A stretch of DNA of 64,000 nucleotides from Marinobacter antarcticus (lineage in GTDB: Bacteria > Pseudomonadota > Gammaproteobacteria > Pseudomonadales > Oleiphilaceae), in NCBI RefSeq assembly GCF_011049865.1, contig NZ_DRGY01000100.1, positions 11,952-75,951 on the forward strand, in the 5' to 3' direction. The position numbers and the translations under genes are program-made. Positions 1-38,583 of the stretch are shown here, piece after piece. Positions within the stretch are counted from its first letter, which is position 1. Every line of letters begins with the position of its first letter. The notes beneath the pieces were generated by a model. It was not told where the DNA came from. It saw nothing but the letters and a program-made list of their open reading frames with translations, and ran no database searches.

Positions 1-302
1 TAGACAGTGCCTTCGCGGTCACTGTCTGCGAGCTCTGCCCGCGCCAGTATAAGGGCCAGTGCCGTTGCTGGCAGCAAAATAAGCTTTGCCCAGACACTCA
101 GTGTATCGATGCGATATGTGCCACTGAATATGCCGGTGTCCTGGCCTAAAAGCGGCAGAGTCAGAACGGTCGCAACCAGCAGGCCGGCCAGCATGACCAC
201 CAGCGCTGTACGGGGCAGGTGCAGCATTTCGGCTACCAGCGCGGCAACAATGCTGAGAAGTAGAATGATCTCGGGGATCAGCAGAATAAGGTCAGAAGCC
301 AT
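1..302 (-). CDS. nuoN: NuoN-like antiporter-type subunit, N-terminal part (runs off the window)
   Basis: Not in the ORF track. ATG at 302 overlaps the nuoM-like stop (TGATG). Translates as MASDLILLIPEIILLSIVAALVAEMLHLP...GTYRIDTLSVWAKLILL, with the NuoN-typical N-terminal LxPE and the 'Y.iD.ls...K' pattern. Position follows nuoM. Confidence 0.75.
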   Translation of the reverse strand, partial: MASDLILLIPEIILLLSIVAALVAEMLHLPRTALVVMLAGLLVATVLTLPLLGQDTGIFSGTYRIDTLSVWAKLILLPATALALILARAELADSDREGTV

Positions 303-1771
303 CAGAACTGCAGCGCCGCTGTGGTCTTGTGAATGATGTCTAACACCCAGGACGGTGCGATGCCCACTACAATAATCAATATCAACAGCGGAGCCAGTGC
401 GAGTATTTCACGTCGGTTCAGATCCTTCATGTCGCTCCACCGGTCGTTTGCCTCACCAAGAAACACCTGGCTGATCGCCTTCAGATAAAGGCCTGCGGTA
501 ATAACGATACCAAGAATAGCGATGACCGCCATTGGTTCGACCTGCAGGGTCGCCAGAAAGATCTGAAACTCGGCCGGAAAGTGCGCCAGACCGGGCAAGC
601 CCAGAGAAGCGAAAGCGGCCAGCATGAAAGACCAGCCAAGCACCGGTGTCAGCTGTAGCAGGCCACCGAATTGGTCCATCTCCCGGGTGTGGGCACGATC
701 TTGTAGCATGCCGACAAGCAAAAACAGGGCGCTGGTGACAAGGCCATGGCTGACCATTTGCAGAACCGCACCATCGAGTGCAATTGTGCGTACCGTCGGG
801 TCGAGCGCCAGCCCGGCAATGGCGACTCCGACGATGACATAACCCATGTGGTTAACGGACGTATAGGCGATCAAACGCTTGAGGTCGCTCTGCGCCAGAG
901 CGGCAAATGCACCATAAAGAGCGGCGATGACACCGAAAGTCAGAATGACGATACCAGCTTCATGAAAGGCGTCTGGTGTCATCTGCAAGGAAAATCGCAC
1001 CAGCCCATAGGTGCCAAATTTCAGCATCACCCCAGCAAGTATGACGCTACCGGCCGTAGGTGCCTGCACGTGTGCGGCAGGTAGCCATGTGTGTAAAGGG
1101 AATACCGGTGTCTTGACCGCAAAGGTAAACAGCATTGCAACTAATGCCCACATGGCTGCCGCGCCGGCCAGAGGTGGGTTGTCGATCCAGGCGCGCATGT
1201 CGAAAGTGTGCGGATCACTGCCCAGATATAGCCCAAGTATTGCCAACAGCAGTGGCAGGCTGCCCAGGAAGGTGTAAATAAAAAACATCAGCGCTGCTCG
1301 CTGTCGGTCTTCGTGTCCCCAGCCGGCAATCATGAAATACATGGATACCAGTGATATCTCGAAAAATACGTAGAACAGGATACCATCCAGCGCCGTGAAG
1401 GTACCGATAGCGGTCGTTTCCAACAGTAGCATCAGCACCACAAAGGCTGGGGCGCGTTCACGCAGCTTGGCAGAATAGATAAAAGTGATGAAAAACAGTA
1501 GGGCGCTCAACAGCACCAGCGGCAGACTGATACCGTCAACCCCCACCCGGTAGGCGGCACCGATGGAAGGCATCCAGTCGATCTGTTCAACCTGGGCAAA
1601 ACCGCTGTCATTAACACCTCGTAACCACATCAACACGCCACCCAAAAGCGTCAAGCCACTGGTTGTTATGCCGATGGCGTGCACTACCCCCGGCGGAGGC
1701 CTGCGCAACACCATGATGAGCAGCGCTCCGAGGAGCGGCAGAAACACGGTTATGGACACGATGGGCAGCAC
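302..1771 (-). CDS. nuoM: NuoM-like antiporter-type subunit of a Complex I-like complex
   Basis: Motifs GVDGISLPL, FFEISLVSMYFMI, AVKTPVFPLHTWLP, AGVMLKFG, IAYTSVNHMG, FPAEF. GTG start with an AAGGAG RBS. Confidence 0.92.
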   Translation of the reverse strand: MLPIVSITVFLPLLGALLIMVLRRPPPGVVHAIGITTSGLTLLGGVLMWLRGVNDSGFAQVEQIDWMPSIGAAYRVGVDGISLPLVLLSALLFFITFIYSAKLRERAPAFVVLMLLLETTAIGTFTALDGILFYVFFEISLVSMYFMIAGWGHEDRQRAALMFFIYTFLGSLPLLLAILGLYLGSDPHTFDMRAWIDNPPLAGAAAMWALVAMLFTFAVKTPVFPLHTWLPAAHVQAPTAGSVILAGVMLKFGTYGLVRFSLQMTPDAFHEAGIVILTFGVIAALYGAFAALAQSDLKRLIAYTSVNHMGYVIVGVAIAGLALDPTVRTIALDGAVLQMVSHGLVTSALFLLVGMLQDRAHTREMDQFGGLLQLTPVLGWSFMLAAFASLGLPGLAHFPAEFQIFLATLQVEPMAVIAILGIVITAGLYLKAISQVFLGEANDRWSDMKDLNRREILALAPLLILIIVVGIAPSWVLDIIHKTTAALQF

Positions 1772-1785
1772 GCAGATTGTCTCCT

Positions 1786-3603
1786 TTAAAAAGTCAGTAT
1801 TGAAATCAGTAGGGTGGCGAAAATCAACGTGGTAACCACGACGGTGATAACCAGTTCGCGATGGATGAGCCCACTTTGCAGGCGACGGGCGCGACTGCCA
1901 AGAGAGGTCACGCCACGAACCAGAGAAAATATCAGCCCGTCGATACCCCGTTCATCGCCAAGGCGCACGGCCTGACCAAGACTGAGTCCAAGTTGCCCCA
2001 GAGCCAGCACCCGGTTGTATAGTGCGCGCTCCAGTCGCTCGCAGCTGCGGGCGATAGCGAGTGCGGGCCGCACCATCCAGGTATTGAAGCCGCCAGCGAT
2101 GGCGAAGCTTCGCTGACTCCATGGCCTCAACGGGCCCAGCAAATGCTGTGCCGGAACAAACCAACCCAGGGTCAGGCCCACTACTGCGGCAACAAGACCC
2201 AGCATCATGGCAACATTATTTGCAGGGAGCGGGTCGGAAAACATTGCCTCGATAGCCGGAAAGGCAGCGCCAAGGATGGCGGCCAGAATAACAAGGCACG
2301 CCAGCGCCGCTCCCATCCATGCCAGACCGGTGATGTTATGGTGTGCGGTGTTTCCTTGCCAGAGAATACGAAGCGACCGGGCCATATAGGCGCCGGTGAG
2401 CAGTGTGCTGGCCAGCACAAGTGTTGTGAATAATGGAGCGTAGGAGGAGGCCAGAGCGGCGGCAATAATGGCATCCTTGGAAAAGAAACCACTCAGCGGG
2501 GGAATACCCGTCAAAGCCAGCGCGGCCACAGCAAAACCGAAGAATATCCACGGTCGGTCGCGCCCTGCGCCATGAAGTTCGCTGAACGCCGTGCTATCAC
2601 GGCTGTGCTGGAACACCCCCGCGCCGAGAAACAGAGAGCTCTTGATGAACGCGTGGGCCAGCAGGTGCAGCAATGCTGCCAGGGGTACCCCAGCCCCGAC
2701 CGCCACCAGCATCAAGCCATACTGACTGGAAGTCGACGCCGCAAGCGTGCGCTTCAGGTCACTCTCGCCCAGGGCAATCAAACCGGTGACCAGGGTGGTG
2801 ATACCGCCAACGATACCAATTACCAGCAGTACCTGATCCGGCAACATCGGCGCCGTGCGGATCAGTAGAATCGCGCCCGCGGCCACCAGAGTGGCGGAGT
2901 GCAATAGCGCCGAGACTGGGGTGGGGCCGGCCATGGCCCGCTGTAACCAGTCATGTAATGGTGTCTGCGCCGATTTCCCCATGGCTGCGACCAATAGCAG
3001 CAGCCCTGCGGCTGTCGCGGCACCACCACCGGTGTTTAACGTGGTGGTGATATTGCTGCTGCCCGCGTCAGCAATGAGGATGAATACCCCAATATAGAGT
3101 CCCAGGTCGGCGCTGCGGGTATAAAGGAAGGCGCGGGTGGCAGCGGATCTTACTCCCGGGCGCTGGAACCAGAAACCGATCAGCAAATAGCTGGCAAGTC
3201 CGATGAGCTCCCAGGCGGCAAGCAGTAATATCCAGTCGCCGGCGAGCACCAGGGTTTGCATGGCGGCGACAAACAGCAGCATGGTGGCAAAGAAACGAAC
3301 CTTCTCATCGTCCCGCTTCATGTAGCCGATGGCGTACACCACCACCAGACCGCCAATAATGGCGACCAGGCCTGAAAGCAATGCTGTGAGTGGTGTGGCG
3401 ACCAGGCTCAGGGGCAGATTCGGCAAACCCGGTAACTGTATCTCGTGGCTCACTCCGGCGCTTGTGTCCGCCAACAGCGCGAGGCTGGCCAGCAGACCGA
3501 TTGTGGCGCCTGATAGCGCGAACACCTCGGGGATTCGCCGCAGCAACAGAATGAGCATTGCAGCAGCAAGCGGTGCGAGGATCGTGGCGAAAATAAGATT
3601 CAT
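1786..3603 (-). CDS. nuoL: NuoL-like antiporter-type subunit
   Basis: Motifs WELIGLASY, GKSAQTPLHDWL, GPTPVSALLHSATLVAAG, FFSKD, plus a C-terminal amphipathic helix ending LQSG...TM. Confidence 0.92.
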   Translation of the reverse strand: MNLIFATILAPLAAAMLILLLRRIPEVFALSGATIGLLASLALLADTSAGVSHEIQLPGLPNLPLSLVATPLTALLSGLVAIIGGLVVVYAIGYMKRDDEKVRFFATMLLFVAAMQTLVLAGDWILLLAAWELIGLASYLLIGFWFQRPGVRSAATRAFLYTRSADLGLYIGVFILIADAGSSNITTTLNTGGGAATAAGLLLLVAAMGKSAQTPLHDWLQRAMAGPTPVSALLHSATLVAAGAILLIRTAPMLPDQVLLVIGIVGGITTLVTGLIALGESDLKRTLAASTSSQYGLMLVAVGAGVPLAALLHLLAHAFIKSSLFLGAGVFQHSRDSTAFSELHGAGRDRPWIFFGFAVAALALTGIPPLSGFFSKDAIIAAALASSYAPLFTTLVLASTLLTGAYMARSLRILWQGNTAHHNITGLAWMGAALACLVILAAILGAAFPAIEAMFSDPLPANNVAMMLGLVAAVVGLTLGWFVPAQHLLGPLRPWSQRSFAIAGGFNTWMVRPALAIARSCERLERALYNRVLALGQLGLSLGQAVRLGDERGIDGLIFSLVRGVTSLGSRARRLQSGLIHRELVITVVVTTLIFATLLISILTF

Positions 3604-3911
3604 CCTTTCAACTCGGCGGCTTCTTCCATTTCAACCGAACCTATGGCGCGGAAACGGGCGATGGCCACACCAAAGCCTACTGCCATTTCTACTGCCATCA
3701 CGGTCATCACGATCAACACAAACATCTGTCCGGCGGGGGTGTCTGGATGCAGGTAGTGCCAGAATGCGACCAGGTTAACCATGGCGCCGGCCAATATTAA
3801 CTCCACACCCATCAGGAGCATCACTAGATTGGTTTGCGACAGTGCGCCGTATATGCCGATACCGAACAGCGCTGCGCCGGTGATTAACGCGGGGAACAGT
3901 TCAGGCGTCAT
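3600..3911 (-). CDS. nuoK: NuoK-like subunit
   Basis: 103 aa, three TM segments, MGVELIL and MAVEMAVG with both conserved Glu residues. Confidence 0.9.
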   Translation of the reverse strand: MTPELFPALITGAALFGIGIYGALSQTNLVMLLMGVELILAGAMVNLVAFWHYLHPDTPAGQMFVLIVMTVMAVEMAVGFGVAIARFRAIGSVEMEEAAELKG

Positions 3912-4429
3912 CAGTTTCGGTTCCTTTTTAAGGGTTCAACCGCCACGGCCGTGGCAGCAATCATGGCGGTAAGGAGTGTGAGACCAGCGGTCTCGAAGAT
4001 CAGCATTGATCTACCCATCAGCTCAAGCCCCAGATCCTCGATCTGTTGTGCGGAATCCGGTACCGAGCCGGCGAGAGTCCCCCAGTTGGTAAATAGGGCC
4101 ACGGCTACGATGGCCAAAAATGCCACCAGACCCGTTATCACGGAACGGCGCTTTTGATGGGTCATATCCATCTTGCCCAGACCGCCCGGATCCATCATGA
4201 ACATCACCATAAAAATCGCCATGATGCTCATTTCCGTGGCCATCATCATGATCTGCAACACACCGAGGAATTCCGCCTGCATCCCGATGAACATGGCACC
4301 GATAGCTGTTTGTGAGAACAGCAGGGCCAGTGCGGAACGCATCATCGAATGAGTGCGGAAGACGACTATCCCGAACCACACGGCGGCGAGCCCAAAGAAG
4401 CTGATAAAAAACGTCTGTGCGCTGATCAT
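3911..4429 (-). CDS. nuoJ: NuoJ-like subunit
   Basis: Start taken at MISAQTFF (ATGA overlap with the nuoH stop). AEFLGVLQIMMM region; C-terminal 'LGLELM...LIFETAGLTLLTAMIAA' pattern. Confidence 0.85.
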   Translation of the reverse strand: MISAQTFFISFFGLAAVWFGIVVFRTHSMMRSALALLFSQTAIGAMFIGMQAEFLGVLQIMMMATEMSIMAIFMVMFMMDPGGLGKMDMTHQKRRSVITGLVAFLAIVAVALFTNWGTLAGSVPDSAQQIEDLGLELMGRSMLIFETAGLTLLTAMIAATAVAVEPLKRNRN

Positions 4430-5322
4430 GGCCATACCAACACCTGCAGCCCAACCACAAAGATATTGAGTAGCGCCAGAGGGATACCGAGTTTCCAGCA
4501 TAAACTCAGCAGATCGGCCTCGCGGACACGCGGCAAAGCCGGCCCGGCCAGCAACATGAGTGCGGTGACCGCCAATATCTTGATGGCGCTCCAGGCCCAG
4601 GGAGGCAGCCAGGGCCCTTGCCAGCCACCCAGATAGAAAACGACGATGGTTGCCGCCAGAGTAATAACCAGCACCAAACGTCCAAGCCGAAAGACTGCCA
4701 GCCGCACGCCGCTGTATTCCGCTTCCACGCCGCCGGCCAGCTCACTTGTTGCCGTGGTCAGGTCGAACGGCGGCAGAAACGCCAGCGCCATGGCGGCGAC
4801 GAAAAACAGTACAAATCCCAGTGGCTGGTAAAGAATATTCCATAGATCCGCTTGGGAGGTAACGATTTGGGTGGTCAACAAAGACTCGGCGCGCATCGCC
4901 ACCGCGGTGACGGGCATAACGATGAGCATGGCATAGGCAATGAGCTGGCCCAGAAAGCGCCAGCCACCGATCATTGCATAGGCGCCGTTCGGCCCCCAGC
5001 CGGCCATCAGCAAAGCCACCAGTACATAAACCAGTGCCGCGTTGATGAACAGTACGCCGGTGGCGAGGTCAGTGATGATCAAACCAGGTGTCAGAGGAAG
5101 CACCGTGGCGGCAAGCAGTGCCGAGATCAACAACAGGACCGGTGCCACCTCAAAGAAAACCCGGTCGGGTTTGCGCGGTACGATAGATTCCCGGCCCAGC
5201 AGGGCGATGCCGGCGGTGATCGGTGCGGCCAGTTGCCAGCGCCCGTTCATAGTCCAGGCTTCGATTACCGCGACCAGGTAAGCACCGACGGCCAATAATA
5301 GGAGTATGAGCGCAGTCGTCAT
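4426..5322 (-). CDS. nuoH: NuoH-like subunit (degenerate acidic loop)
   Basis: Motifs PFDL...SELAGG...[20 protein letters not shown]...CWK. Confidence 0.88.
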
Positions 5323-7223
5323 TGGCGAATCTCCCAGGGCGACAGATCCAGAGAGCCCACGGCGAGGAGGGCATCGCCCAGCGACTGTTGCTTGGTCAGG
5401 GTGTCGATCAGGGTGAGGTGGTGTGTGGAGGGTGTTTCCAACTGCGCTGTTACCACAAGACCCTTTTCCAGGGTCAGATACAGATGAGCTGCGCCGCGGG
5501 GTGTTTCAACGAATGCCTCGCCAGCGCCGGTTGCCGAGCCGATGGCAGTTGGCTCGGGTAGTTCGATGGTACCGGCGGCATCAATAAGCGCGAGACTTTG
5601 GCTGAGCTCGTCAAGACGTACCTGCAGGCGGGCCATACTATCACCGCTGTCGCGGCTGATTGCCTTGAATCCCAGCGCGGTGTAGACCGGGTTCGTACTT
5701 CGTGCGTCGTTGTCAATGCCCACAGCGCGTGCCACGGGGCCTCGCAAGGCATTATCTTGAGCTAGCCGACCGATGCCAGCGTTGCGTGATTTCAGTAATG
5801 GTGTCCGGCGCAGGCGTTTGATCAGGCTTGCTAAGTCTGGTTTGAGCGCCATGATTTGCTGATCGTTCGCATACCGGAACTTCAGTTGCATTGTTGCAGC
5901 ACGTCGTAACAGCCAGTCGAAGCCCATCTGCTGACCGAACAGCGCCAGCCAGCCCAGATGACTGGTGATTCGTTCTCTTTCCAATGCACCAATGCGGCCA
6001 TGGGCCGCAGTAGTCGTAATGTCGATGCCAGCAGCATTTTCCATCGCCTGGCTGGCAAGAAAGTGATAAGCAAGCGGAGCCAGTGGTTCCATATTGCTCA
6101 GCCGCGCTACAAAGCTAAGGGGTTCGAGCGCCGAACGATGAGGCAATGTCACGTTGTCCGTCAGTGTTCCGGCGTTGGAACCGGCAACCGTGTCACCGTC
6201 GAGCGTCAATGTCAGCAATAGGCCACTAGGCAAACCCGGGAAAAACGGCCCAAAGGGCACGTCGATCCAGTCCATTGGCAGGCCGTCACTGCTGCGTGGC
6301 AGATCTTTGGTAACGTCAATCATGGACATAAACGCATCATCCCCATGATCCATATCCCCATGATCCATATCCCCATGATCCATACCGCTGTGATCCATAC
6401 CGCTGTGATCCATATCGCCATGATCCATATCGCCATGATCCATATCGCCATGATTCATATCACTTTGATCAGTGCTGGCATGATCATGGGCTTTTGAAGC
6501 CTTTGCCTTTCGTGGTTCCAGGGTCATGCCACACTTGGGGCAAGAACCCGGCTCGCTCTGCACGACTTCCGGGTGCATGGGACAGGTGTATTCCTCCGAT
6601 GCCGCATGATCCATAGACTGATGGTCGTTCGCTTCGTGCTGATGACTGTGTGATCCGTGATCGTGCGTCTCGTGCGGGTGACTGTCGACGTCATTGGCGG
6701 ACGCCTCGCGCGGCTCCAGAGTCATGCCGCATTTGGGGCAGGAGCCGGGCTCGTCCTGCACTACTTCCGGGTGCATGGGGCAAGTGTATTCGACTCGAAC
6801 GTGCAACATCGGCGCGTCAAAGTCTGTCACTTCTGGTCGAAAGGCGCCTTCGGCGAAAGCAATTCGAAGTTGGGCAATGCCATCAATCAGGCCTGGCTGT
6901 GACAATTCGGCTGTCACATCTGCAGAAGGTAGGGGCGATAGGTCGTCTGTACCCAGAACCAGTAAAGCGCGAGGCCGCGCCATCTGGGCATAGATCACTG
7001 CGGCGGCGTTCCGCAGCGCAGGCGAGATATCGCCAACCACGAGCAGCACGCTGGCGTGGCGAGGGCTGGCTACAAGCCGCACGCCAGCCGCTTCCACATC
7101 CAGCCCCCGTGCATGCGCGATGTCGATCCCCGGAACAAGAAAGCCGGTGAGGTCACGTGCCATTGCTTTGGCCACTAATTGGCGAAGTCCGGAAAGCTTG
7201 CCCTGGCGGGCGCCGACGATCAT
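5319..7223 (-). CDS. Fusion protein: Cys-less NuoB-like domain, two heavy-metal-binding (YTCPMHP) domains, His/Met-rich linker, NuoD-like domain
   Basis: N-terminus [18 protein letters not shown]...IYAQMARPR resembles NuoB. [26 protein letters not shown] occurs twice. (MDHGD)n linker. C-terminus PFGPFFP...[34 protein letters not shown] resembles NuoD. Confidence 0.85.
6341..6460. repeat. 8 x 15-bp tandem repeat encoding M[DN]H[GS][DG] pentapeptides
   Basis: Units ccccatgatccatat, cgctgtgatccatac and cgccatgatccatat read directly from 6341 to 6460. Confidence 0.95.
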
Positions 7224-7580
7224 TTATTGCCTCCGCAATACACCCTGACTCCAGCCATAAAGCAGGCCGAGAAACAGGATGGCAAGAAATACACCCATAT
7301 CAAGCAAGGCAACCAGCCCTACCTGCTTGTAAACCACCGCCCACGGATACATGAACGCCATTTCCATATCGAAAGCCAGAAACAACAAGGCGTATCCATA
7401 ATAACGCGCATGATAACGCACCCAAACTGGGTCACGTGACAGCTGGCCACCAGTTGCGGGGACGTCTTTTCCGGGTTCCTGTTGTGTTTTTCCGGTAGCA
7501 CGTGCGATAGCGTACAGGCTCAGTACGAAGCCTGTCGCACCAACAATCAAGCCCAGCAAAAGTCCATATTGTTCGAGCAT
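7224..7580 (-). CDS. nuoA: NuoA-like subunit
   Basis: YYGYALLFLAFDMEMAFMYPWA and the GWSQGVL end. AGGAG RBS before MLEQYG at 7580. Confidence 0.88.
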   Translation of the reverse strand: MLEQYGLLLGLIVGATGFVLSLYAIARATGKTQQEPGKDVPATGGQLSRDPVWVRYHARYYGYALLFLAFDMEMAFMYPWAVVYKQVGLVALLDMGVFLAILFLGLLYGWSQGVLRRQ

Positions 7581-7778
7581 GCTTATCGTTTCTCCTAATA
7601 CCCGCAAAGGGCAAGGGCTGGCATAGTTTTTCGAGATTGACGTTACCGGTTCTCAACCCGCTACAGCCTGATTTTTATCGAATGGACGACCGAGCCAGTT
7701 GTAAAGCCGGCAGAACCTGCTCAAGAAACTCGTGCATATGCAGACTCTCAGGTGTAATCAAACCATAGATAACACAGA

Positions 7779-7901
7779 TCATAAAGCTAATGACGAATCT
7801 TTATCATGGCCATCCTTATGACCTCCATGACCGAACAGGTGCATGGCGACAAAGATTATGCCAATCAGAGTCCAGAACCAGTTTTCCGCTCGCCATTCCA
7901 T
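7779..7901 (-). CDS. 40-aa single-TM His-rich micro-protein (DUF2933-like)
   Basis: Hand-translated as MEWRAENWFWTLIGIIFVAMHLFGHGGHKDGHDKDSSLAL*. AAGGGTGAG RBS upstream. Below the length cut-off of the ORF track. Confidence 0.6.
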   Translation of the reverse strand: MEWRAENWFWTLIGIIFVAMHLFGHGGHKDGHDKDSSLAL

Positions 7902-7960: not shown

Positions 7961-8854
7961 TCACTGAAGTAATTTTGCAAAAGCCGTCACCAGAGGCCCT
8001 TGCGGCCGGTTTTGGTAATGGAGTTTGAATAATGGTCGTGATAGTGGTGCAGAGCCCGAGACGCTCACTTCCCGAATGCAACCTTGCGTCAGCAGATTAT
8101 CCACCATGATTTTTGGTAACAGGGCACGGCCCAATCCGTGAACCACTGCATTGATAATGGCTTCATTACTGCCCATGGTGATTTTTTTGACGGGTGTTAT
8201 ATGTTCATGCTCAAAAAACTGTTCAGAAACTTCTCGCGTGCCGGAGCCATTTTCACGAACAACCCATAAGGCCTCAGAATCATTAAGGTCTTCCACCTTG
8301 TCATGAATGGCGCTGCCATCGACAGTCGCTTCGACCACCGCAAGCTTGTCATCACGCCAGTGCTCGCAAATAATGCGGGGGTCATTCACGGTACCTTCGA
8401 CCAACCCGATATCGATATCGCAATCCACCAACTGGCGGCTAATTGACTGGGTATTACCGACGACAACCTGGATATCAATAGCGGGATGCTGGTTCGCAAA
8501 CGTTACCAGGTAGGGTGATAACCAGTAGCCCGCAATGGTTGTGCTCGCACCGATCACCAAAGTGCCTCGCTTTAGCCCCACCCGGGCATGAATGTCGTCG
8601 ATAGCCGCCTTTTCCAGCGCAAAAATACCGCGAGCGTGATCAAAGATCACGTCGCCATTTGCGGTTAGCTGCACCCCTTTTCGGCTATTGCCTGTGCCAC
8701 CCGAACGCTCAATCAACGGCAAATCAAGCTGGCTTTCTAGTTCCTTTACGGCCCTCGATACCGCCGGCTGGCTGATATGCAGCGTTTCAGCGGCTCGCGA
8801 GAAGCTACCGTCGACAATTACAGTATGAAAAATACGCAGTAGGTGCAGATTCAC
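7961..8854 (-). CDS. yeiE: LysR-family regulator, YeiE/CysL type
   Basis: HTH SFSRAAETLHISQPAVSRAV; motifs GASTTIAGY, GSGTRE, MGSNEAI. Divergent from yeiH. Confidence 0.85.
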   Translation of the reverse strand: MNLHLLRIFHTVIVDGSFSRAAETLHISQPAVSRAVKELESQLDLPLIERSGGTGNSRKGVQLTANGDVIFDHARGIFALEKAAIDDIHARVGLKRGTLVIGASTTIAGYWLSPYLVTFANQHPAIDIQVVVGNTQSISRQLVDCDIDIGLVEGTVNDPRIICEHWRDDKLAVVEATVDGSAIHDKVEDLNDSEALWVVRENGSGTREVSEQFFEHEHITPVKKITMGSNEAIINAVVHGLGRALLPKIMVDNLLTQGCIREVSVSGSAPLSRPLFKLHYQNRPQGPLVTAFAKLLQ

Positions 8855-8957: not shown

Positions 8958-10022
8958 ATGACAGCCACCACGTTCACACCACCAAAAGCAATAACAACTG
9001 CCAACACATCTGCATGGTGGAAAGGTATTGCGCTGGTCGCCGTCATCGCAGGAACTGCGCTGGCCGCCGCCAAAACGCCTTTGGCCAATCAAATCGGGCT
9101 AGGCGCCCTGACGCTTGCAATCATTACCGGGATTATCGCAGGTAACACGTTTTTTCCCCGGATTGCCCATCACACTGCTGAGGGCGTTGATTTTTCAAAA
9201 AGTAATCTGCTGCGGTGGGGGATCATGTTGTACGGTTTTCGAATTACCTTTCAGCAAGTTGCAGGCGTTGGCTGGCAGGGTGTTCTGACCGATGTGGTCA
9301 TGCTCACACTGACCTTTGGTCTGGCGTTACTCATCGGTATCCGGTTATTAAAGCTGGACCGACAAACCGTGATTCTAATAGGCGCAGGCAGCTCTATATG
9401 CGGTGCAGCGGCCATTCTGGCGACTGAACCGGTCATTCGGGCCCAGGCTCATAAAGTGTCTGTTGCTGTGGCTACCGTGGTGGTTTTCGGAACCCTGGCA
9501 ATGTTTCTTTATCCGATGGTGTACCCGTATCTTGAAATGACGGCTCATCAATACGGTTTATTTGTGGGATCCACGGTGCACGAGGTTGCCCAGGTGGTGG
9601 GCGCCGGGCAGGCTGTCAACGATGTCGCTGGCAACACCGCGGTGATTGAAAAAATGCTGCGAGTGATGATGCTGGCTCCCTTTTTGCTGGCGCTCTCCTT
9701 GGTTGGCTTTACCAATCAGCGAACAGACGGCAAAGAAACTGAACGGCAGGGTGGCATTACCGTGCCCTGGTTCGCCGTTATTTTTCTCGCGATCAGTGGC
9801 CTTAATTCATTCCACGTTATTCCGACAACTGTGGTCGATATTCTGGTTGGGCTTGATACCGTATTACTGACCATGGCTATGGCCGCTCTGGGCTTGCGAA
9901 CACACATTGGGGCGATCAAGCAGGCTGGCGCCAAGCCGTTGATATTGGCCGCTTTGCTCTTTGTTTTCCTGACTGTTGGTGGCTACTTCGTTAACAGAGG
10001 CCTGATATTGCTTTTCGCTTGA
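8958..10022 (+). CDS. yeiH: YeiH/UPF0324 family putative sulfite/sulfate exporter
   Basis: Motifs LLRWGIMLYGF, GSSICGAAA, GSTVHEVAQV, KMLRV, MAALGL. Confidence 0.92.
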   Translation: MTATTFTPPKAITTANTSAWWKGIALVAVIAGTALAAAKTPLANQIGLGALTLAIITGIIAGNTFFPRIAHHTAEGVDFSKSNLLRWGIMLYGFRITFQQVAGVGWQGVLTDVVMLTLTFGLALLIGIRLLKLDRQTVILIGAGSSICGAAAILATEPVIRAQAHKVSVAVATVVVFGTLAMFLYPMVYPYLEMTAHQYGLFVGSTVHEVAQVVGAGQAVNDVAGNTAVIEKMLRVMMLAPFLLALSLVGFTNQRTDGKETERQGGITVPWFAVIFLAISGLNSFHVIPTTVVDILVGLDTVLLTMAMAALGLRTHIGAIKQAGAKPLILAALLFVFLTVGGYFVNRGLILLFA

Positions 10023-10058
10023 AGGGCTTCTGGTTGATAAAAATTTGAAGACTGCAAA

Positions 10059-10086
10059 GGAATAAAACGGACACTCGTTACGCCTT
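10059..10086 (+). promoter_or_regulatory. ECF-sigma promoter copy 1 (GGAATAAA-N9-cGTtACGcCTT)
   Basis: Same -35 element and spacing as the copies at 10741 and 12401; the downstream element matches 8 of 11 positions. Confidence 0.55.
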
Positions 10087-10219
10087 CTTTTGTATGCCGG
10101 TTCTGCGTTCTCAAGTGAACACTGGAATACGGGAGGAGCCGTACATCACGTGAATCTGCCATTTCGGTGTCGGTCCAGCCTAAATGCGCACCTCAATGCA
10201 TAGGATCAGGAGATACATT

Positions 10220-10642
10220 ATGAAACAGAATCTGAAACACACACTACTGATTGTCGCACTTACTGCCGGAAGTTCAGTTTACGCTTCGGAAGGCCCCGGG
10301 CTGGATGTCTCAGCCCAGAAGGCTGGTAACGAAGTGACTATTTCAAGCGTAAAGGCTAACGCATCCGGGTTTGTTGTTATCCATGACAGCAACACCGAAG
10401 GAAAGCCGGTTGTACCGTCTTCTATCGGACATACAATGATCAACGCCGGTCACAACAGTGACGTTAAGGTGACGCTTGACCACACAGTAAAGGTTGGCGA
10501 AAAGCTATTTGTTATGCTGCATGAGGACACTGGAAAAAAAGGTATTTATGAGTTTGGGCCGGGCTCCGTAAATGTTGATAAACCAGTGGTAGATGAAGGT
10601 CATGTTGTCGTCAAGGCGTTCACCATCAACGGCATGAAATAA
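10220..10642 (+). CDS. Secreted beta-sandwich protein (DUF7282-like)
   Basis: Signal peptide MKQNLKH...VYA; motifs GFVVIH and VMLHEDTG; AGGAG RBS. Confidence 0.7.
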   Translation: MKQNLKHTLLIVALTAGSSVYASEGPGLDVSAQKAGNEVTISSVKANASGFVVIHDSNTEGKPVVPSSIGHTMINAGHNSDVKVTLDHTVKVGEKLFVMLHEDTGKKGIYEFGPGSVNVDKPVVDEGHVVVKAFTINGMK

Positions 10643-10740
10643 CCGAAAGCACAATCAACGCGCTCTCGCGATATTTCAACGAAGTCAACAGGGCGCTTGT
10701 TGTGGTATGAACCAGACAATCTCACATAAATTTCAATTGG

Positions 10741-10769
10741 GGGAATAAATCGGGCAGTGGTGACGTCTT
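10741..10769 (+). promoter_or_regulatory. ECF-sigma promoter copy 2 (GGGAATAAA-N9-GGTGACGTCTT)
   Basis: Identical conserved blocks to 12401-12429; lies upstream of 10897. Confidence 0.7.
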
Positions 10770-10896
10770 GATAAGAGACCGTAAATATTTTTACAGACCC
10801 CGTGAAGCTTGCGCGGCATATAGGCTACGAATGGAGAGCACCGGCCGTCATGGACTAAATGCTTCATGGTTCCACATGTGAATCAGGACTCTAACA

Positions 10897-12384
10897 ATGA
10901 TAAACCAACGTATCTTGCAGATATCAAAACTTGTGCTTTCAATAGGTCTTTTCTACGGCGCTAATGGCGCCATAGCGGCACCGGGAGAAGACAGTATTGC
11001 CCGGGGAAAACAGGTCTATAACCAGCAATGTGCCGCCTGTCATCAGGCTGAAGGGCAGGGAATTCCCGGATCGTTTCCGCCTCAGAAGGATCACACTGCA
11101 AACGTCTTCAATGCCAGTGGCGGTGTGGGCGGGCGAGACTATCTGGTCCATGTGCTGCAATACGGCCTGACTGGCGCGATTGATGTAGAGGGGACATCGT
11201 ATAACGGCAATATGCCTGCTTGGGGTGGATCGCTCAGCGACCAGCAAATCGCGGATGTCCTGAATTATGTGGTGACAGGGTTTGGCAATAAAGCACGTCT
11301 TTCCGGCGAATTTCGCCCTTACTCTGCCGATGAGGTGAAAGCGATCTCAGGTAAGGACCTCTCCGGTAAAGATGTCTATCAGTTGCGCCAGGTGGTCCTG
11401 GGGAACCAAGGGCAGGGTTCGGCGTTGTCATCGCCCACCTCTCAAAGTGTGGCAGCATCAGACGCCACCCACATGGCGTCGGAAGTATCACTTGAACAGG
11501 CTATACCGAAACCGATCTATGCCGCAGTCCAGAAAACCGGAGTTGTTGAGCGCTTTCCTTCAAAATCATCCTGGCCCGGGGTTGAGGGTGCTCACTACGA
11601 TGCCCTGAGTCCGGACGGGAAACAGCTCATAGTGTCGGGGTTCAAGACCGGCAATGTGTACGTTATGGACACGAATAACGGCGAAATCGAAGGCAGTATT
11701 TCGATTGGCGAGGTGGCGCAGGGTGTCAAGATATCACCAGATGGGCGTTACGGCCTTGCGGTAGCGCCCAACCAGGGGATCGTTGCGGTCATTGATATGG
11801 AAACGCTGGCACTGGTCAAAAAAATCAGTGTGGGTGACACGCCTCACAACCTCATTTTCAATACGAACGGCAGCCTCGCTTATGTCACCTTGCAGGGCGG
11901 GGGTGCGTTAGCCGTGGTGGATATGGAAACGCTCACCAAACAGCGAGAGATACCGACACCGGGGCTGGAAACCCCCCATAATATTGATATTTCCGGTGAC
12001 GGGCATCGTTTATGGATTCGTGACTTCATCGGCCATGTGGGCGTTCTTGATCTGGACAGCGAGAAGGTTCTCAAGGTGTTCAAGGTTGGCGCGGGTCACG
12101 GTGGCATCGATGTGATTCCCAACAGCCGTTATGTGGCCACGGGCGCCATCTCCGCGTCTCAGGTGACGGTGATTGATGCTGACAGCCTCGCAATTGTTGC
12201 CAATCTCGATGTAGGAACCGGACCCCATGGTGTGCGGGCCAGCGCCGATGGCCGTTACCTGTATACGTCTGTGACAGCAGACAATATGATCACCATTATT
12301 GACATGGAGTCGCTGAAGGTCGTTCGCCAGGAGCCCGTTGACGGGAAGTTTCCATTCTGGCTTGCAGTACCCGGCAACCCTTAA
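10897..12384 (+). CDS. Periplasmic cytochrome c plus YVTN/YncE-type beta-propeller fusion
   Basis: Signal peptide; CAACH heme motif with distal Met (GNMPAW); repeated 'VGxxPH...s.DG..LYvt' blades. Confidence 0.85.
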   Translation: MINQRILQISKLVLSIGLFYGANGAIAAPGEDSIARGKQVYNQQCAACHQAEGQGIPGSFPPQKDHTANVFNASGGVGGRDYLVHVLQYGLTGAIDVEGTSYNGNMPAWGGSLSDQQIADVLNYVVTGFGNKARLSGEFRPYSADEVKAISGKDLSGKDVYQLRQVVLGNQGQGSALSSPTSQSVAASDATHMASEVSLEQAIPKPIYAAVQKTGVVERFPSKSSWPGVEGAHYDALSPDGKQLIVSGFKTGNVYVMDTNNGEIEGSISIGEVAQGVKISPDGRYGLAVAPNQGIVAVIDMETLALVKKISVGDTPHNLIFNTNGSLAYVTLQGGGALAVVDMETLTKQREIPTPGLETPHNIDISGDGHRLWIRDFIGHVGVLDLDSEKVLKVFKVGAGHGGIDVIPNSRYVATGAISASQVTVIDADSLAIVANLDVGTGPHGVRASADGRYLYTSVTADNMITIIDMESLKVVRQEPVDGKFPFWLAVPGNP

Positions 12385-12400
12385 AAAAAGACTGCCGGTT

Positions 12401-12429
12401 GGGAATAAAGTGAAAGCTGGTGACGTCTT
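12401..12429 (+). promoter_or_regulatory. ECF-sigma promoter copy 3, autoregulatory for the sigma operon
   Basis: gggaataaagtgaaagctggtgacgtctt directly upstream of the sigma gene. Confidence 0.7.
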
Positions 12430-12475
12430 TGGTTAATGGCTAGCCCAATAAAGCACTCCTGATAAGGCACTGTGG

Positions 12476-13054
12476 ATGCGCAACGCCCGGAGCAAACAGC
12501 AGTTCGACGCCCTGACTCGCCCCTGGCGGGATCGGCTGTTCGGTGTTGCGCAGCGCCAGGCCCGGTCGCGGGAGGCGGCTGAAGACTGGACACAGGAGAC
12601 GCTGCTCCGGGCGTGGCGAGATTTTGGCCAGCTTGCGGAACAAGGTGCGATCTATGCGTGGCTACTGAAAATCCTGAATCGGGTAGTGGCTGATGACGTT
12701 CGGCGTAGCGCACGGCGAGATCAATTGGCACCTATGCTTACCACCGGTGACGCATTTTTGCAGGAGCAGGCCTGCACGTCCGCCGGACCTTTCGAACAAA
12801 CCGTGCAAACCCAAAGCAATGAACAACTTATGAAAGCGATGCAGGCGCTACCGGACAATTTCCGTCAAGTTGTTTTGTTGCGGGATATCGAAGGGCTGAA
12901 TTATCAGGAGATTGGGCAGGTTCTGAACATTGCACAGGGTACGGTCATGAGTCGGTTATCAAGAGGTCGGCGGCTTTTGGCCAACCTCCTCATCAGGACG
13001 GAATCCGGGGATGGATTAGCAGCAACCTCTATACACGGCGGTAAATCCACATGA
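12476..13054 (+). CDS. ECF sigma factor (sigma-70 family, group 4)
   Basis: Region 2 AEDWTQETLLRAWR...AWLLKI; region 4 LRDIEGLNYQEI...GTVMSRLSRGR. Confidence 0.92.
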   Translation: MRNARSKQQFDALTRPWRDRLFGVAQRQARSREAAEDWTQETLLRAWRDFGQLAEQGAIYAWLLKILNRVVADDVRRSARRDQLAPMLTTGDAFLQEQACTSAGPFEQTVQTQSNEQLMKAMQALPDNFRQVVLLRDIEGLNYQEIGQVLNIAQGTVMSRLSRGRRLLANLLIRTESGDGLAATSIHGGKST

Positions 13055-13866
13055 ATGACCTCGACAAAACAGAGGCCGGGCGCTTCTCTGAACTCCACCT
13101 CGAGCTGCAGGACTGGCTGGCAGGTTACGTGGATGGCGAACTGAATGAGCATCACACGGCCATAGTGGAGGCGCACCTGGTAGGCTGTGAAGCCTGTCGT
13201 GCGGACGTTGCCCGTCAGAAGGCCACGAGCAGACGATTTCATGATATGCCGACAACCCGCATGCCGATCGAGCTGCATAAGCAACTTGATAACGCGCTTG
13301 CAAACGCGCCGGATCATTCTGAACAAGCGCGCAGTACGACATCCAGATTTAATCTCAGACAATGGCTGACCGGCTTATACCGCCCTGCGGCGGTTGGTGC
13401 CGGAGGATGGGCCGTGGCACTGGTGCTTGCCGGAGTACTGTGGCTGCCCGACGTGGGTGTTATGAGTCAAGGCCACATCCCGATGGTGAGTGATGCCTTG
13501 GCAGACTATCAAAAGGTGGCCCTCACGGACCTTCCTGCGCTGGGAAATACCACTGACTCATCAGTTCCAGCCAAGCTGGCAGGCGGTCGCTTACTAGCCT
13601 CCTGGCACACCACCGTGGGCGGCGAACCCGCTGAGGCCTTTGCCATGCGACGGGGCAACAGCCTGGTGATTCAGTACCGGATTTCGGAACAGGTTCTGTT
13701 CAGGAATCCAGACGTGCGGAAGGCGATGGCCACCATGGGCGACTACCGTACTCGCGAAAACCAGCTGGAGGTGCTGGCCATCCCGATGAAGGAATCCGGT
13801 TTACTGGTTGTCGGGCCAGCGAATGCCATGCCAGCAACCAGTGATTTGGAGTTAGAATCTATCTAG
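13051..13866 (+). CDS. Zinc-finger (ZAS) anti-sigma factor
   Basis: EAHLVGCEAC (HxxxCxxC), one TM segment, periplasmic domain; coupled to the sigma gene. Confidence 0.88.
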   Translation: MNDLDKTEAGRFSELHLELQDWLAGYVDGELNEHHTAIVEAHLVGCEACRADVARQKATSRRFHDMPTTRMPIELHKQLDNALANAPDHSEQARSTTSRFNLRQWLTGLYRPAAVGAGGWAVALVLAGVLWLPDVGVMSQGHIPMVSDALADYQKVALTDLPALGNTTDSSVPAKLAGGRLLASWHTTVGGEPAEAFAMRRGNSLVIQYRISEQVLFRNPDVRKAMATMGDYRTRENQLEVLAIPMKESGLLVVGPANAMPATSDLELESI

Positions 13867-13973
13867 ACAGTAAACGTGATTATTTTACATCCAGCATCTA
13901 AACTGACGCATGGATGTATCGTGTGGTGCCTAAGGCGAGGGGCCCGGAAAGGCCAACAACAAGGAGAAGAGTC

Positions 13974-15203: not shown

Positions 15204-15300
15204 CCGAAAACCACTCAGCGGTCGCTACAACGACGGGCCGCTGCGACAGCTCTTGGATTACCGCGAAAATACCAAGTACCATTCTATCGAGGATAGTATT

Positions 15301-15618: not shown

Positions 15619-15671
15619 TGCGCAGCGCACAACGCTGGATATGGGATTAGGGCAGAGCCGGTATCAGAAAT

Positions 15672-16580: not shown

Positions 16581-16810
16581 GGGATCAACCTCGTTTGGTG
16601 CTTGGTAGAAGAAGGAGCTCCCCAGAACTGCTGGGGCGGCGGGCATAGCTTGTCATTGGCCATCAAGGTTGTAGACCAATGGGTCGCATTTTGGGCTTGG
16701 ACTGAAGCGTTTTGTTGACCACTTCCGAGGCCTTGTCGCCATCAACACTGCAGGGCCGACCGCTGTCAGCCCGGCCACCTGGAATGGTCCACTAGCCCGG
16801 TTATTGCCGG

Positions 16811-17158: not shown

Positions 17159-17172
17159 GGCTCATCTCCTCG

Positions 17173-37468: not shown

Positions 37469-37470
37469 CC

Positions 37471-38580: not shown

Positions 38581-38583
38581 CTT

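Follow-up and report, generated by a model that had tools for sequence, protein, structure and literature searches.

An eight-gene operon on the minus strand of Marinobacter antarcticus contig NZ_DRGY01000100.1, at positions 1-7607 of the analysed window (the whole stretch of 64,000 nucleotides), probably encodes a membrane machine that derives from complex I, no longer carries electrons and would act, in an Mrp-like manner, as a pmf-driven exporter of Cu(I) or Ag(I), a reading to which a probability of about 0.58 is assigned. The disappearance of the electron-transfer parts, the copper-type metal-binding features and the strong selection on the genes together make a proton-driven copper(I) transporter the most likely explanation; we infer the substrate, direction and energy source of the export from sequence. 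Copper(I) transport has never been shown for the complex I family. The features, with window coordinates, are the following.

1..302, minus strand (contig 10883-12253): nuoN' (ND2-like), 456 aa in full; NCBIfam NuoN matches
302..1771, minus strand: nuoM' (ND4-like); TIGR01972 NDH_I_M, 504 bits against a cut-off of 263.8
1786..3603, minus strand: nuoL' (ND5-like); NCBIfam NuoL NF005141, 1.5e-116
3600..3911, minus strand: nuoK' (ND4L-like); PF00420, 4.9e-19, and alignment of 24 orthologues
3911..4429, minus strand: nuoJ' (ND6-like), 172 aa; PF00499, 3e-21
4426..5322, minus strand: nuoH' (ND1-like); PF00146, 1.7e-60
5319..6332, minus strand: NuoD'-like C-terminal domain, fusion residues 298-634; PF00346, 2.8e-18
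6333..6803, minus strand: metal-binding insert, fusion residues 141-297; PF19335 HMBD, 6.8e-27, in two stretches
6804..7223, minus strand: NuoB'-like N-terminal domain, fusion residues 1-140; weak NCBIfam NuoB matches at residues 41-92
7224..7607, minus strand: nuoA' (ND3-like); PF00507, 2.6e-24, and alignment of 33 orthologues with E. coli and the genome's own canonical NuoA
7779..7901, minus strand: DUF2933-type small membrane protein, 40 aa, with a His-rich tail (HLFGHGGHKDGHDKD); PF11666, 25.6 bits against a cut-off of 21

The operon evidently descends from a proteobacterial nuo operon and retains the ancestral order A-B-[C]-D-[EFG]-H-[I]-J-K-L-M-N. NuoC, E, F, G and I are absent from its genes according to Pfam and to the gene order across loci, and B and D are fused, which leaves nuoA', the B'-HMBD-D' fusion, nuoH', nuoJ', nuoK', nuoL', nuoM' and nuoN'. 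An earlier note on this DNA had described the complete frames as open, and minus-strand translation bears this out for all eight genes, which are uninterrupted and tightly coupled; their junctions are ATGA/TGATG overlaps or short spacers, and the overlapping start and stop codons imply translational coupling. The nuoA' start is likely the ATG at 7580, which lies behind an AGGAGA site and gives 118 aa as in relatives, and not the TTG at 7607. Likewise, nuoJ' likely starts at ATG 4429, where an ATGA overlaps the nuoH' stop. The last operon member, nuoN', is represented in the window by its first 100 codons, the remainder lying beyond the left end. Some 200 bp upstream of nuoA', in the same orientation, lies the DUF2933-type gene, a possible accessory gene of the operon; a 70-aa DUF2933 gene is found near the operon in two close relatives (L051 and L054).

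The most profound changes affect the cytoplasmic cap. In alignments with E. coli NuoB and the genome's own NuoB, the CCxxE, GxCxxxGG and PGCPP motifs of NuoB' are deleted, so that none of the four ligands of Fe-S cluster N2 is left and the domain is free of Cys, and AF2 predicts residues 12-126 with pLDDT > 90. The D' domain has the fold of the 49-kDa/HycE proteins (Foldseek against the PDB: probability 1.0 and TM 0.6-0.7 with HycE and the 49-kDa subunits of complex I) and belongs to a family of 143 clusters at 50% identity (E<=1e-30, whole-library phmmer). D' also lacks Cys, and in the family alignments the NuoD His-loop and the quinone-site Tyr positions are not conserved, while its N-terminal arm FMSM...M..W is invariant. 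In the alignments the cap is devoid of Fe-S and NiFe ligands, and no cofactor ligand is left in the proteins of the operon. Together with the missing subunits, these losses uphold the claim of the earlier note that the quinone and redox side has been discarded.

At the same time, the cap has acquired cytoplasmic heavy-metal-binding modules, recognizable as zinc-ribbon-like HMBD domains, His/Asp linkers and MDH repeats. The insert occupies the place of NuoC in the nuo gene order and consists of HMBD1 (146-171), a His/Asp-rich linker, HMBD2 (212-237) and eight tandem xxMDH pentapeptides (256-295), in which MDH recurs with a period of 5. All six Cys of the fusion protein lie inside the HMBDs, which AF2 folds with confidence, the linkers being disordered. 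Among 120 family proteins the HMBD copy number ranges from 0 to 11. The xxMDH repeats resemble the Met/His/Asp copper-binding repeats of CopA/PcoA-type proteins; a literature search found no biochemical support for the metal specificity of the PF19335 HMBD.

A second set of changes is found in the membrane, where the parts that make up the quinone cavity and E-channel in complex I, namely the NuoA' loop and TM2, the NuoH' loops, NuoJ' TM3 and NuoK', have been re-lined, with family-invariant and especially Met-rich residues substituting for the canonical ones. NuoA' keeps D80/E82 (E. coli D79/E81) between Met residues (FDMEMAFM). Its TM1-2 loop has been remodelled to VPATGG where E. coli has VPFESG, which confirms that the PYECG-type loop reads PATGG (P50-G54), and the new loop, EPGKDVPA(T/S)xGQLSRDPVWVRYH, is nearly invariant in 33 orthologues. 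In NuoK' both transmembrane Glu, E37 and E75, are retained with a Met near each (MGVE, MAVEM). The Met content of NuoJ' reaches 10.5%, compared to 3.4% in the genome's own canonical NuoJ and 2.7% in E. coli, and 16 Met recur in 85% or more of the family, 15 of them at positions that are not Met in E. coli. These residues are densest in TM3 (LGVLQIMMMATEMSIMAIFMVMFMM), where MMM replaces E. coli I57-V58-Y59, and the TM3-4 loop reads GKMDMTHQ. TM3 is 32% Met in every lineage, including the variants from Fodinibius and Mycobacterium, the distant Mycobacterium variant combining the Met-rich TM3 with MDH repeats and no HMBD. The TM3 Met do not line a single helical face (helical moment 0.16, P 0.73). 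The earlier note mentioned neither the HMBDs and MDH repeats on the cap nor the Met-dense NuoJ' TM3, and these gains are a pointer to the repurposed job.

NuoH' has its closest solved structure in E. coli NuoH (7nyh_H, 3.3e-53). Its N-terminal region had been described as absent, which proved too strong: TM1 and Glu21 (E. coli E36) are kept, and what has changed is the TM1-2 loop, shortened by an 11-residue deletion with loss of R37, R46, Y47, R51, D63 and K66. Replacement of the acidic TM5-6 loop was correctly noted and maps to residues 185-195; E216 and E218 are the acidic residues lost from this loop. In the E-channel, E157 is changed to Ala or Ser (Ala in the copy of the window) and E241 to Arg in 19 of 19 orthologues.

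The proton-translocating part is far better preserved, NuoL' and NuoM' and, for the most part, NuoN' retaining the proton-channel residues. Alignment to E. coli K-12 and the genome's own Nuo proteins places the motifs reported earlier for NuoM, NuoL, NuoK and NuoA at the canonical positions, in NuoL' as WEL E132, GKSAQ K210, LLHSA H235 and FSKD K376/D377 and in NuoM' as FFEI E138, AVKT K220, MLKF K251 and PAEF E401, with H308 and H342 also kept. The NuoL' equivalents of E144, D178, K229, H254, D303, H338, K342 and K399 are invariant in 24 orthologues and those of H334 and D400 are present in 23; the long lateral helix and TM16 are likewise visible in the C-terminal alignment. For NuoM', none of 21 orthologues departs from the Lys, His and E401 equivalents, and 20 of them keep E138. 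Judged against an overall identity to E. coli of 34-38%, this retention of channel residues in the two subunits exceeds chance. In a comparison that covered 21 orthologues, NuoN' keeps K207, K237 and K375, and E. coli E133 (the TM5 Glu) is replaced by Leu, K295 by Val and H305 by Gln. The proposal that proton-pathway residues were kept stands for NuoL', NuoM', NuoK' and NuoA', whose charged transmembrane residues vary little or not at all across 21-33 orthologues from four bacterial classes, with no random loss; it fails for E157 and E241 of NuoH' and for E133, K295 and H305 of NuoN'. Since NuoH' has lost two E-channel Glu and NuoN' its TM5 Glu, the coupling of a cation site to the proton modules must differ from that in complex I.

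In M. antarcticus the operon forms one module within a more extensive metal-resistance island, where its neighbours are a CDF transporter, three RND systems (two or more of the heavy-metal type) and two P1B ATPases; a nearby CusB-CusF fusion and one of the island's P1B ATPases also carry an HMBD. A separate complete Nuo13 is encoded on contigs C48/C49 and an Mrp-like cluster on contig C138. Two same-genus genomes contain all eight genes; copies from the genus share about 50% identity in the fusion protein, and in one same-genus genome CopB and DUF411 adjoin the operon. Outside the genus the flanks are not copper-specific: among 128 flanking ORFs a multicopper oxidase was found at only 2 of 20 loci, and response regulators, ammonium transporters and thioredoxins are commoner. 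A literature search on the operon returned as its sole match a passing mention in Marinobacter atlanticus transcriptomics. There, a 'NuoADHJKL' cassette of strain CP1 lies inside a copper-resistance operon and rises together with the cop genes (Eddie et al., 2021, PMC8233155); the account is based on transcriptomics only, describes the cassette as lacking nuoM/nuoN and reads it as a pump that might run on copper redox chemistry. It reports neither the missing Fe-S ligands nor the HMBD/MDH insert nor a Met-lined NuoJ' (PMC8233155).

In the favoured mechanism, the complex would exchange a soft metal ion, most likely Cu(I) and possibly Ag(I), for protons in the manner of an Mrp-type antiporter. 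The tethered HMBD/MDH modules would capture cytoplasmic Cu(I) and pass it on to the Met-bearing D' arm and to the remodelled loops where cap and membrane meet. From there it could reach the periplasm along putative Met/carboxylate sites in NuoJ', NuoK' and NuoA', powered by inward proton flow via L', M' and N'.

Four other explanations have to be weighed against this exporter. That a complex I operon was duplicated or transferred and is now decaying here as a functionless relic might be suggested by the loss of 5 of the 13 subunits and of all cofactor sites, yet the probability of this is close to nil. Pairwise dN/dS is 0.01-0.26 in all eight genes (NG86; pairs with dS 0.05-1.3) and not near 1; in Gamma-, Beta- and Alphaproteobacteria and in Balneolales, about 20 loci show strict synteny of the eight genes, which alone form the conserved unit in the loci compared, and the membrane subunits are 70-90% identical across bacterial classes. 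All eight genes are under purifying selection in several classes, and the conclusion of the earlier note that this is a functional, repurposed machine and not a relic holds. Its notion that the coupling loops have decayed does not, as the replaced polar sites are as conserved in the family (0.76-0.90) as average sites (0.78-0.90). The substitution rates, cross-class identity and conservation of replaced sites contradict the relic reading, as do the open frames and overlapping starts and stops. A redox-driven ion pump, powered by another partner or by Cu(I)/Cu(II) cycling of bound copper, was suggested by Eddie et al. for the M. atlanticus cassette (PMC8233155). For Ehr-type complexes the general assumption is that redox reactions in the cytoplasm are coupled to ion translocation (PMC6349859), and some copies of the operon lie near c-type cytochrome genes, whose products would, however, be periplasmic and the cap cytoplasmic. 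With Fe-S ligands, NuoI, a flavin module and conserved quinone-site residues all missing and no redox gene conserved beside the operon at 22 loci, this idea seems decidedly improbable.

A somewhat better, still low chance is given to an Mrp-like Na+(K+)/H+ antiporter or pmf-linked pump for hard cations, in which the metal-binding cap would only sense or regulate, for instance by switching the complex on under metal stress. NuoK' retains its Glu pair and NuoA' its Asp/Glu, as complex I and Mrp do, the proton modules L', M' and N' are intact and most lineages have no copper genes in their flanks. This proposal leaves unexplained the Met-dense NuoJ' TM3 of every lineage and the exchange of the NuoH' E-channel Glu for Ala and Arg; moreover, the genome already has its Mrp-like cluster, and up to 11 HMBD copies look more like capture capacity than a sensor. 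Equally unlikely is a copper importer or insertion machine that would bring Cu(I) in or deliver it to cuproenzymes, with HMBD and MDH repeats as acceptors. Transport direction is not fixed by sequence alone, and many hosts are sulfur-oxidising or vent Gammaproteobacteria with cytochrome c, cytochrome c peroxidase or multicopper oxidase genes near the loci. Cation uptake down the membrane potential, however, requires no three-module proton engine, and it is P1B exporters that typically carry tethered metal-binding domains in the cytoplasm, which counts against import. In Marinobacter the operon sits in resistance islands among exporters, and the related cassette is co-induced with copper-resistance genes (PMC8233155).

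Compared with known systems, the operon shares with E. coli-type complex I (Nuo13) the gene order, all seven membrane subunits, the Lys/Glu/His chains of L' and M', the NuoK Glu pair, the NuoA Asp/Glu and the NuoL lateral helix; the best solved match of NuoH' is a complex I subunit and NuoM' passes the NDH_I_M cut-off. It differs by the missing NuoC, E, F, G and I, Fe-S ligands and conserved quinone-site residues, by the fusion of B and D around a metal-binding insert, by the Met-dense NuoJ' TM3 and by replacement of E157, E241, E216 and E218 in NuoH' and E133 in NuoN'. In the known Cu(I) exporters CusCBA (RND) and CopA (P1B ATPase), Met clusters inside the membrane protein relay Cu(I)/Ag(I), and the transporter is fed by tethered metal-binding domains in the cytoplasm. 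The island's CusB and one P1B ATPase share the HMBD of the operon, but folds and energy coupling are unrelated, and the resemblance is functional only.

Ehr (energy-converting hydrogenase-related) complexes generally keep Fe-S subunits. These complexes, Mbx included, combine a large-subunit homologue devoid of Ni-Fe ligands with antiporter-like subunits and have no assigned function (PMC6349859). D' and its partners match this description, but Ehr complexes are thought to be redox-coupled, whereas the small subunit of the operon has lost its cluster and NuoI is missing; the membrane arm follows the Nuo pattern (A, J, K, L with lateral helix, M, N) rather than that of hydrogenases, and metal-binding domains have been added. 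The M. atlanticus CP1 cassette belongs to the same protein family and is embedded in and co-expressed with copper genes, but is said to lack nuoM/nuoN, which the operon and both same-genus genomes possess.

In Mrp, a small-subunit region homologous to NuoJ/K provides a separate cation path, to which the antiporter-like proton subunits are coupled, and Mrp is the closest functional analogue of the mechanism proposed here. Mrp (Mnh/Pha) belongs to the same superfamily and operates as a cation/proton antiporter with no redox module (PMC7419157). In contrast to Mrp, the operon has NuoA, NuoH and a cytoplasmic B'D' cap, lacks MrpB, E, F and G, encodes an L' that scores 391 bits against NuoL but 243 bits against MrpA, and would transport a soft metal and not Na+ or K+.

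Eight closely packed genes occupy window positions 1-7607 on the minus strand. They are written here with primes, B' and D' standing for the NuoB-like and NuoD-like parts of a fusion protein.

Genes of the operon (window positions, strand, profile matches)
7607/7580-7224, minus strand: nuoA', complex I subunit match (Pfam/NCBIfam)
7223-5319, minus strand: fusion protein of 634 aa, with weak NuoB N-terminal, two HMBD (PF19335) and NuoD C-terminal matches (Pfam, NCBIfam)
5322-4426, minus strand: nuoH' (Pfam/NCBIfam match)
4429-3911, minus strand: nuoJ' (Pfam/NCBIfam match)
3911-3600, minus strand: nuoK' (Pfam/NCBIfam match)
3603-1786, minus strand: nuoL' (Pfam/NCBIfam match)
1771-302, minus strand: nuoM' (Pfam/NCBIfam match)
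302 to past the left end of the window, minus strand: nuoN', 456 aa on the contig (Pfam/NCBIfam match)

The genes overlap (ATGA or TGATG), abut directly (TAA-ATG) or are separated by a 14-nt spacer with an AGGAG site, which indicates a single, translationally coupled operon. Pfam and NCBIfam profiles recognise the full set of seven core membrane subunits (A, H, J, K, L, M, N), and the operon contains no nuoC, E, F, G or I. NuoE/F/G homologues do occur in this genome, but not near the operon: some belong to the canonical nuo locus (contigs C48/C49), which is separate, complete and of the E. coli type, others to a cluster of their own on C46. An Mrp-like cluster is present on C138. Current annotation names for the family include 'hypothetical', 'NADH-quinone oxidoreductase' and 'Ni,Fe-hydrogenase III large subunit', and such names lead metabolic reconstructions to count a second complex I wrongly.

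The membrane subunits were aligned with the E. coli K-12 Nuo proteins and the canonical subunits of the same genome. An earlier note had proposed that proton-pathway residues are retained and quinone-coupling loops lost; all the motifs it quoted were found in the translations, each aligned at its canonical functional position. Residues kept are E132, D166, K210, H235, D282, H313, H317, K321, K376 and D377 in NuoL', E138, K220, K251, H308, H342 and E401 in NuoM', and the carboxylates E37 and E75 in NuoK' and D80 and E82 in NuoA'. They are invariant or nearly so among 21-33 orthologues at an overall identity to E. coli of 22-38%, and charged transmembrane residues of these four subunits are not randomly lost. 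The claim of a kept proton pathway holds for L', M', K' and A' and fails for NuoH' E157 and E241 and for the TM5 Glu of NuoN'. In NuoH', E157 (the 'SYE' Glu) is replaced by Ala or Ser, E241 (TM6 'GEY') by Arg in 19 of 19 sequences, R286 by Gly, K140 by Ala and Y128 by Val. In NuoN', the TM5 Glu (E133) has become Leu, K295 has become Val and H305 Gln, and the equivalents of K217, K247 and K395 are retained.

The loop losses were borne out in NuoA', where VPFESG has become VPATGG, and in NuoH', where the canonical acidic loop PFDQPEAEQEL is replaced and E216 and E218 of this TM5-6 loop are not conserved. The N-terminal region of NuoH' had been called absent, which is only partly correct: the ERR...RYGPNR residues are gone and the TM1-2 loop is 11 residues shorter, while TM1 and a Glu equivalent to E36 remain. 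The new NuoA' loop, EPGKDVPA[T/S]xGQLSRDPVWVRYHARYYGYALLFLAFDMEMA, is almost invariant from Gammaproteobacteria to Balneolales. The wording 'decay' could not be upheld, as the replaced canonical polar sites are as conserved in the family (0.76-0.90) as average sites; judged from these alignments, the change is a re-lining and not decay. A coarse statistic of polar residue retention (0.21-0.54 across subunits) displays weak asymmetry, which becomes clear only at the named functional residues. The lateral-helix region at the C-terminus of NuoL' (window 1786-2000) is about 32 residues longer than that of E. coli. In a comparison with loci L054, L014 and L027, an extra 26-residue internal repeat (LERALYN...) was found in NuoL' of several relatives and is absent from the window copy, which measures 605 aa instead of their 630 aa.

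The fusion protein, or cap, has lost the ligands for redox cofactors. B' comprises the N-terminal 140 residues and retains nothing of NuoB beyond its core strand-helix elements. The stretches that carry the four N2 cluster ligands in NuoB are all missing, and across 99 family sequences each of the four Cys positions is either absent or occupied by another residue. The whole protein contains six Cys, all inside two HMBD motifs (CPMH...CPKCGM), and therefore neither B' nor D' can bind an Fe-S or a Ni-Fe centre. The two HMBD copies, each with the CPMH...CPxCGM motif, match PF19335 with 93.5 bits (cut-off 23.6) and are predicted heavy-metal-binding domains. They belong to an insert between B' and D', the position of nuoC in the nuo order, that consists of HMBD1, a His/Asp-rich linker, HMBD2 and a tandem array of eight pentapeptides, each with MDH at its end (Met at 256, 261 ... 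291). The PF19335 paper found, PMC13254101, deals with an ATX1-like chaperone of the MXCXXC type and is not informative for the HMBD of the fusion protein. Anywhere between 0 and 11 HMBD copies are present in 120 otherwise collinear family members (553-1055 aa), which suggests rapid expansion and contraction of the repeats.

A confident AlphaFold2 model built on 76 sequences (mean pLDDT 82.5, pTM 0.76) displays B', both HMBDs and D' as folded and the linkers as disordered. Foldseek matched D' to HycE and the 49-kDa/NuoD subunits with a probability of 1.0. The region of the NuoD His loop (beta1-beta2) is variable in D' and the aligned quinone position lacks a conserved Tyr, in a low-identity alignment whose exact columns are uncertain. 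An invariant FMSM...M..W segment lies just before the first strand of D'.

Methionine is strongly enriched in NuoJ', where it makes up 10.5% of residues compared to 3.4% in the canonical NuoJ of the same genome and 2.7% in E. coli; 16 of its Met are shared by 85% or more of the family. TM3 of NuoJ in complex I bears a conserved Tyr and a pi-bulge. The corresponding helix of NuoJ' has the sequence LGVLQIMMMATEMSIMAIFMVMFMM, where MMM substitutes for I57-V58-Y59, and is followed by a GKMDMTHQ loop. Conserved extra Met flank the kept carboxylates of NuoA' (FDMEMAFM) and NuoK' (MGVE, MAVEM) and line part of NuoH' (IAYAMLIVM). A comparison of Met content revealed no enrichment in L', M' and N'. A continuous path along these residues is putative. 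A Met ladder on one face of TM3 was not borne out: the helical moment of the nine TM3 Met is 0.16, where random placement gives a mean of 0.25 (P=0.73), and five of them (63, 67, 70, 74 and 78 in 172-aa numbering) fall inside an 80-degree arc, which the full set does not. Since the residues do not share a single face, the claim is limited to a Met-dense helix.

A Met-rich TM3 also occurs in a distant actinobacterial variant from Mycobacterium sp. WUMAC-067 (locus L032), together with a repeat-bearing cap, so that Met-rich NuoJ' and the metal-binding cap travel together in two distant lineages. In this variant (9200-17500 of the locus), the cap is composed of B'-like and shortened D'-like parts joined by long repeats with no HMBD, NuoH' keeps the E157 Glu and NuoN' the TM5 Glu.

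Clustered at 90% identity, the full-length relatives of the fusion protein number well over 100. When just the D' domain was searched against 1.84 billion representatives, 143 clusters (50% identity) came up at E<=1e-30 and only 1120 matches at E<=1e-3, which places D' far from ordinary NuoD. Scanning one genome per species unveiled about 20 loci with the same A-BD-H-J-K-L-M-N order. Their hosts are Gammaproteobacteria (Thiogranum, Thioalkalispiraceae, Ectothiorhodospiraceae, Thiohalomonadales and Acidiferrobacteraceae), MAGs of Burkholderiales, the alphaproteobacterium Cribrihabitans marinus and, in the Balneolales, Fodinibius sediminis. Proteobacterial copies share 70-90% identity in their membrane subunits, compared to 45-68% for Fodinibius. 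Of 151 genomes in the host family, only 15 have the operon. Copies from the same genus are more distant (M' 74%, H' 71%) than those of Thiogranum (M' 85%, H' 84%), which suggests that the operon moved horizontally as one unit, and clustering of flanking ORFs found only the eight genes conserved together. The G+C content of the operon (window 1-6000) is 0.56-0.59 compared to 0.47-0.56 in most of the window; this value and the Thiogranum-like proteins are consistent with horizontal acquisition.

Pairwise dN/dS (NG86, pairs at dS 0.05-1.3) was 0.01-0.09 for K', 0.03-0.21 for A', 0.05-0.16 for H' and M', 0.07-0.22 for L', 0-0.12 for N' and 0.13-0.26 for the fusion protein. A value of 0.56 for one N' pair (L009-L012) is an artefact of a partial gene at a contig end (26% 'identity') and was disregarded. 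The earlier note had argued that the operon is not a relic; the frames are open and no dN/dS approaches 1, and with the retained residues this view thus stands.

In this genome the operon is part of a metal-resistance island.

Further members of the island
CDF transporter
Three RND systems, the third a putative, RND-sized gene set at 36125-41673
Two P1B ATPases, one with an HMBD

Beside the RND pump at 44280-47435, the island also encodes a CusB-CusF fusion (47835-49364, minus strand), a CusB-like adaptor with an HMBD (PF19335) at its N-terminus and a CusF domain at its C-terminus. A P1B-type ATPase to the left of the window (contig C100, 5285-7531) is divided into an N-terminal, HMBD-bearing part of 125 aa and a catalytic part of 613 aa, separate ORFs 27 bases apart; the split could reflect a frameshift, a pseudogene or an assembly error. 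Upstream of nuoA' on the same strand lies an unannotated 40-aa ORF (7779-7901, minus strand), MEWRAENWFWTLIGIIFVAMHLFGHGGHKDGHDKDSSL, that matches DUF2933 above the Pfam cut-off, and DUF2933 genes are found near the operon in close relatives too. A LysR-family regulator gene (7961-8854, minus strand) is directly upstream of the operon on the same strand; it accompanies the operon in no related locus and is therefore probably not a dedicated regulator.

CopB and DUF411 genes stand beside the operon copy of a same-genus genome. Outside the genus, copper-specific flanks were not found among 128 flanking ORFs of 20 loci, whose Pfam tally is heterogeneous; a copper-specific neighbourhood in all lineages was thus rejected and the copper context is limited to Marinobacter. 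Ammonium-transporter (Amt) genes account for five of the 128 ORFs; in locus L013 (18554-19771) one of them directly follows nuoN' and has the opposite orientation, and the other four are from other loci. A link to anti-phage defence was sought with PADLOC, which gave no matches. A literature search found the family described only by Eddie et al. (2021; PMC8233155), who reported that a 'NuoADHJKL' cassette interrupts a copper-resistance operon of Marinobacter atlanticus and is co-expressed with cop genes, and speculated on copper-redox-driven pumping.

We are nearly certain that the operon encodes a functional, redox-free derivative of complex I. A relic of a complex I operon, or a pseudogene cluster, is rejected in view of the open frames, dN/dS of 0.01-0.26 and replaced sites as conserved as average ones. 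That the machine handles a soft metal is probable, and export driven by the proton-motive force (pmf), an assignment made by analogy, is slightly favoured. Less likely rivals are a hard-cation antiporter whose cap senses metal, a copper importer or chaperone machine, and a pump that is still redox-driven, with a partner not among the operon genes. Taken as a whole, the leading reading, to which we assign a probability of about 0.5, is that of the first transition-metal transporter in the superfamily of complex I, Mrp and membrane-bound hydrogenases: a pmf-driven Cu(I)/Ag(I) exporter with a former quinone cavity and E-channel re-lined by Met and Met-carboxylate sites, HMBD/MDH modules tethered to a cofactor-free NuoB-NuoD cap that would feed it, and two to three intact antiporter modules that would give several protons per ion.

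Such an exporter can be modelled on Mrp. Metal would be captured by the cytoplasmic HMBD/MDH modules and let into the former quinone cavity and E-channel by the D' arm and remodelled interface loops (NuoA' TM1-2, NuoH' TM1-2 and TM5-6, NuoJ' TM3-4 and D' beta1-beta2). In complex I, the loops that reorganise during turnover are ND3 TM1-2, ND1 TM5-6, ND6 TM3-4 and 49-kDa beta1-beta2. The metal would then cross via Met and Met-carboxylate sites of J', K' and A', and inward proton flow through L', M' and N' would power the cycle.

If this exporter is real, a heavy-metal pump has evolved from a scaffold known only to translocate ions in redox-driven or Na+/H+-type systems, a new class in bacterial copper resistance beside P1B ATPases, RND/Cus, CopCD/PcoB and CDF. 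Nature would then have supplied an 'uncoupled' complex I for the study of long-range coupling between E-channel region and antiporter modules in the absence of redox chemistry, and also a natural experiment on the coupling mechanism, with proton modules and lateral helix kept and all four interface loops rewritten. The family, horizontally mobile and widespread in marine, vent and sulfur-oxidising bacteria, may also have a role in metal tolerance where such bacteria live.

With respiratory complex I the operon shares the seven core membrane subunits and their Lys/Glu/His channel residues, N' keeping three Lys and losing E133. In contrast to complex I, it is devoid of the NADH-oxidising N-module (NuoE, F and G), the N2 ligands of NuoB and the NuoI ferredoxin subunit, and neither the quinone-site His/Tyr of NuoD nor the acidic NuoH TM5-6 loop is conserved. 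With N-module, Fe-S chain and quinone site all failing, it is not a complex I in the functional sense. Mrp, a member of the superfamily that runs without a redox module, is driven by the pmf. The B'D' of the operon has no redox cofactor ligands, and its machine may be pmf-driven. The MrpA-G set (the C-terminal extension of MrpA, and B-G) is unmatched, NuoA', NuoH' and the B'D' cap are present instead and L' scores higher to NuoL than to MrpA models; the subunit set thus excludes an Mrp antiporter. Ehr complexes are defined by a large-subunit homologue without the Ni-Fe-binding Cys that is encoded with antiporter-like subunits (PMC6349859). D' likewise has the NuoD/HycE fold and no Cys, and antiporter-like L', M' and N' are present; redox coupling in Ehr is presumed to proceed via Fe-S small and ferredoxin-like subunits, whereas B' has no Fe-S ligands and a NuoI is missing. 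By its sequence, the operon fits the loose label 'Ehr' only in the missing Ni-Fe ligands, and it possibly brings a new substrate class to the superfamily.
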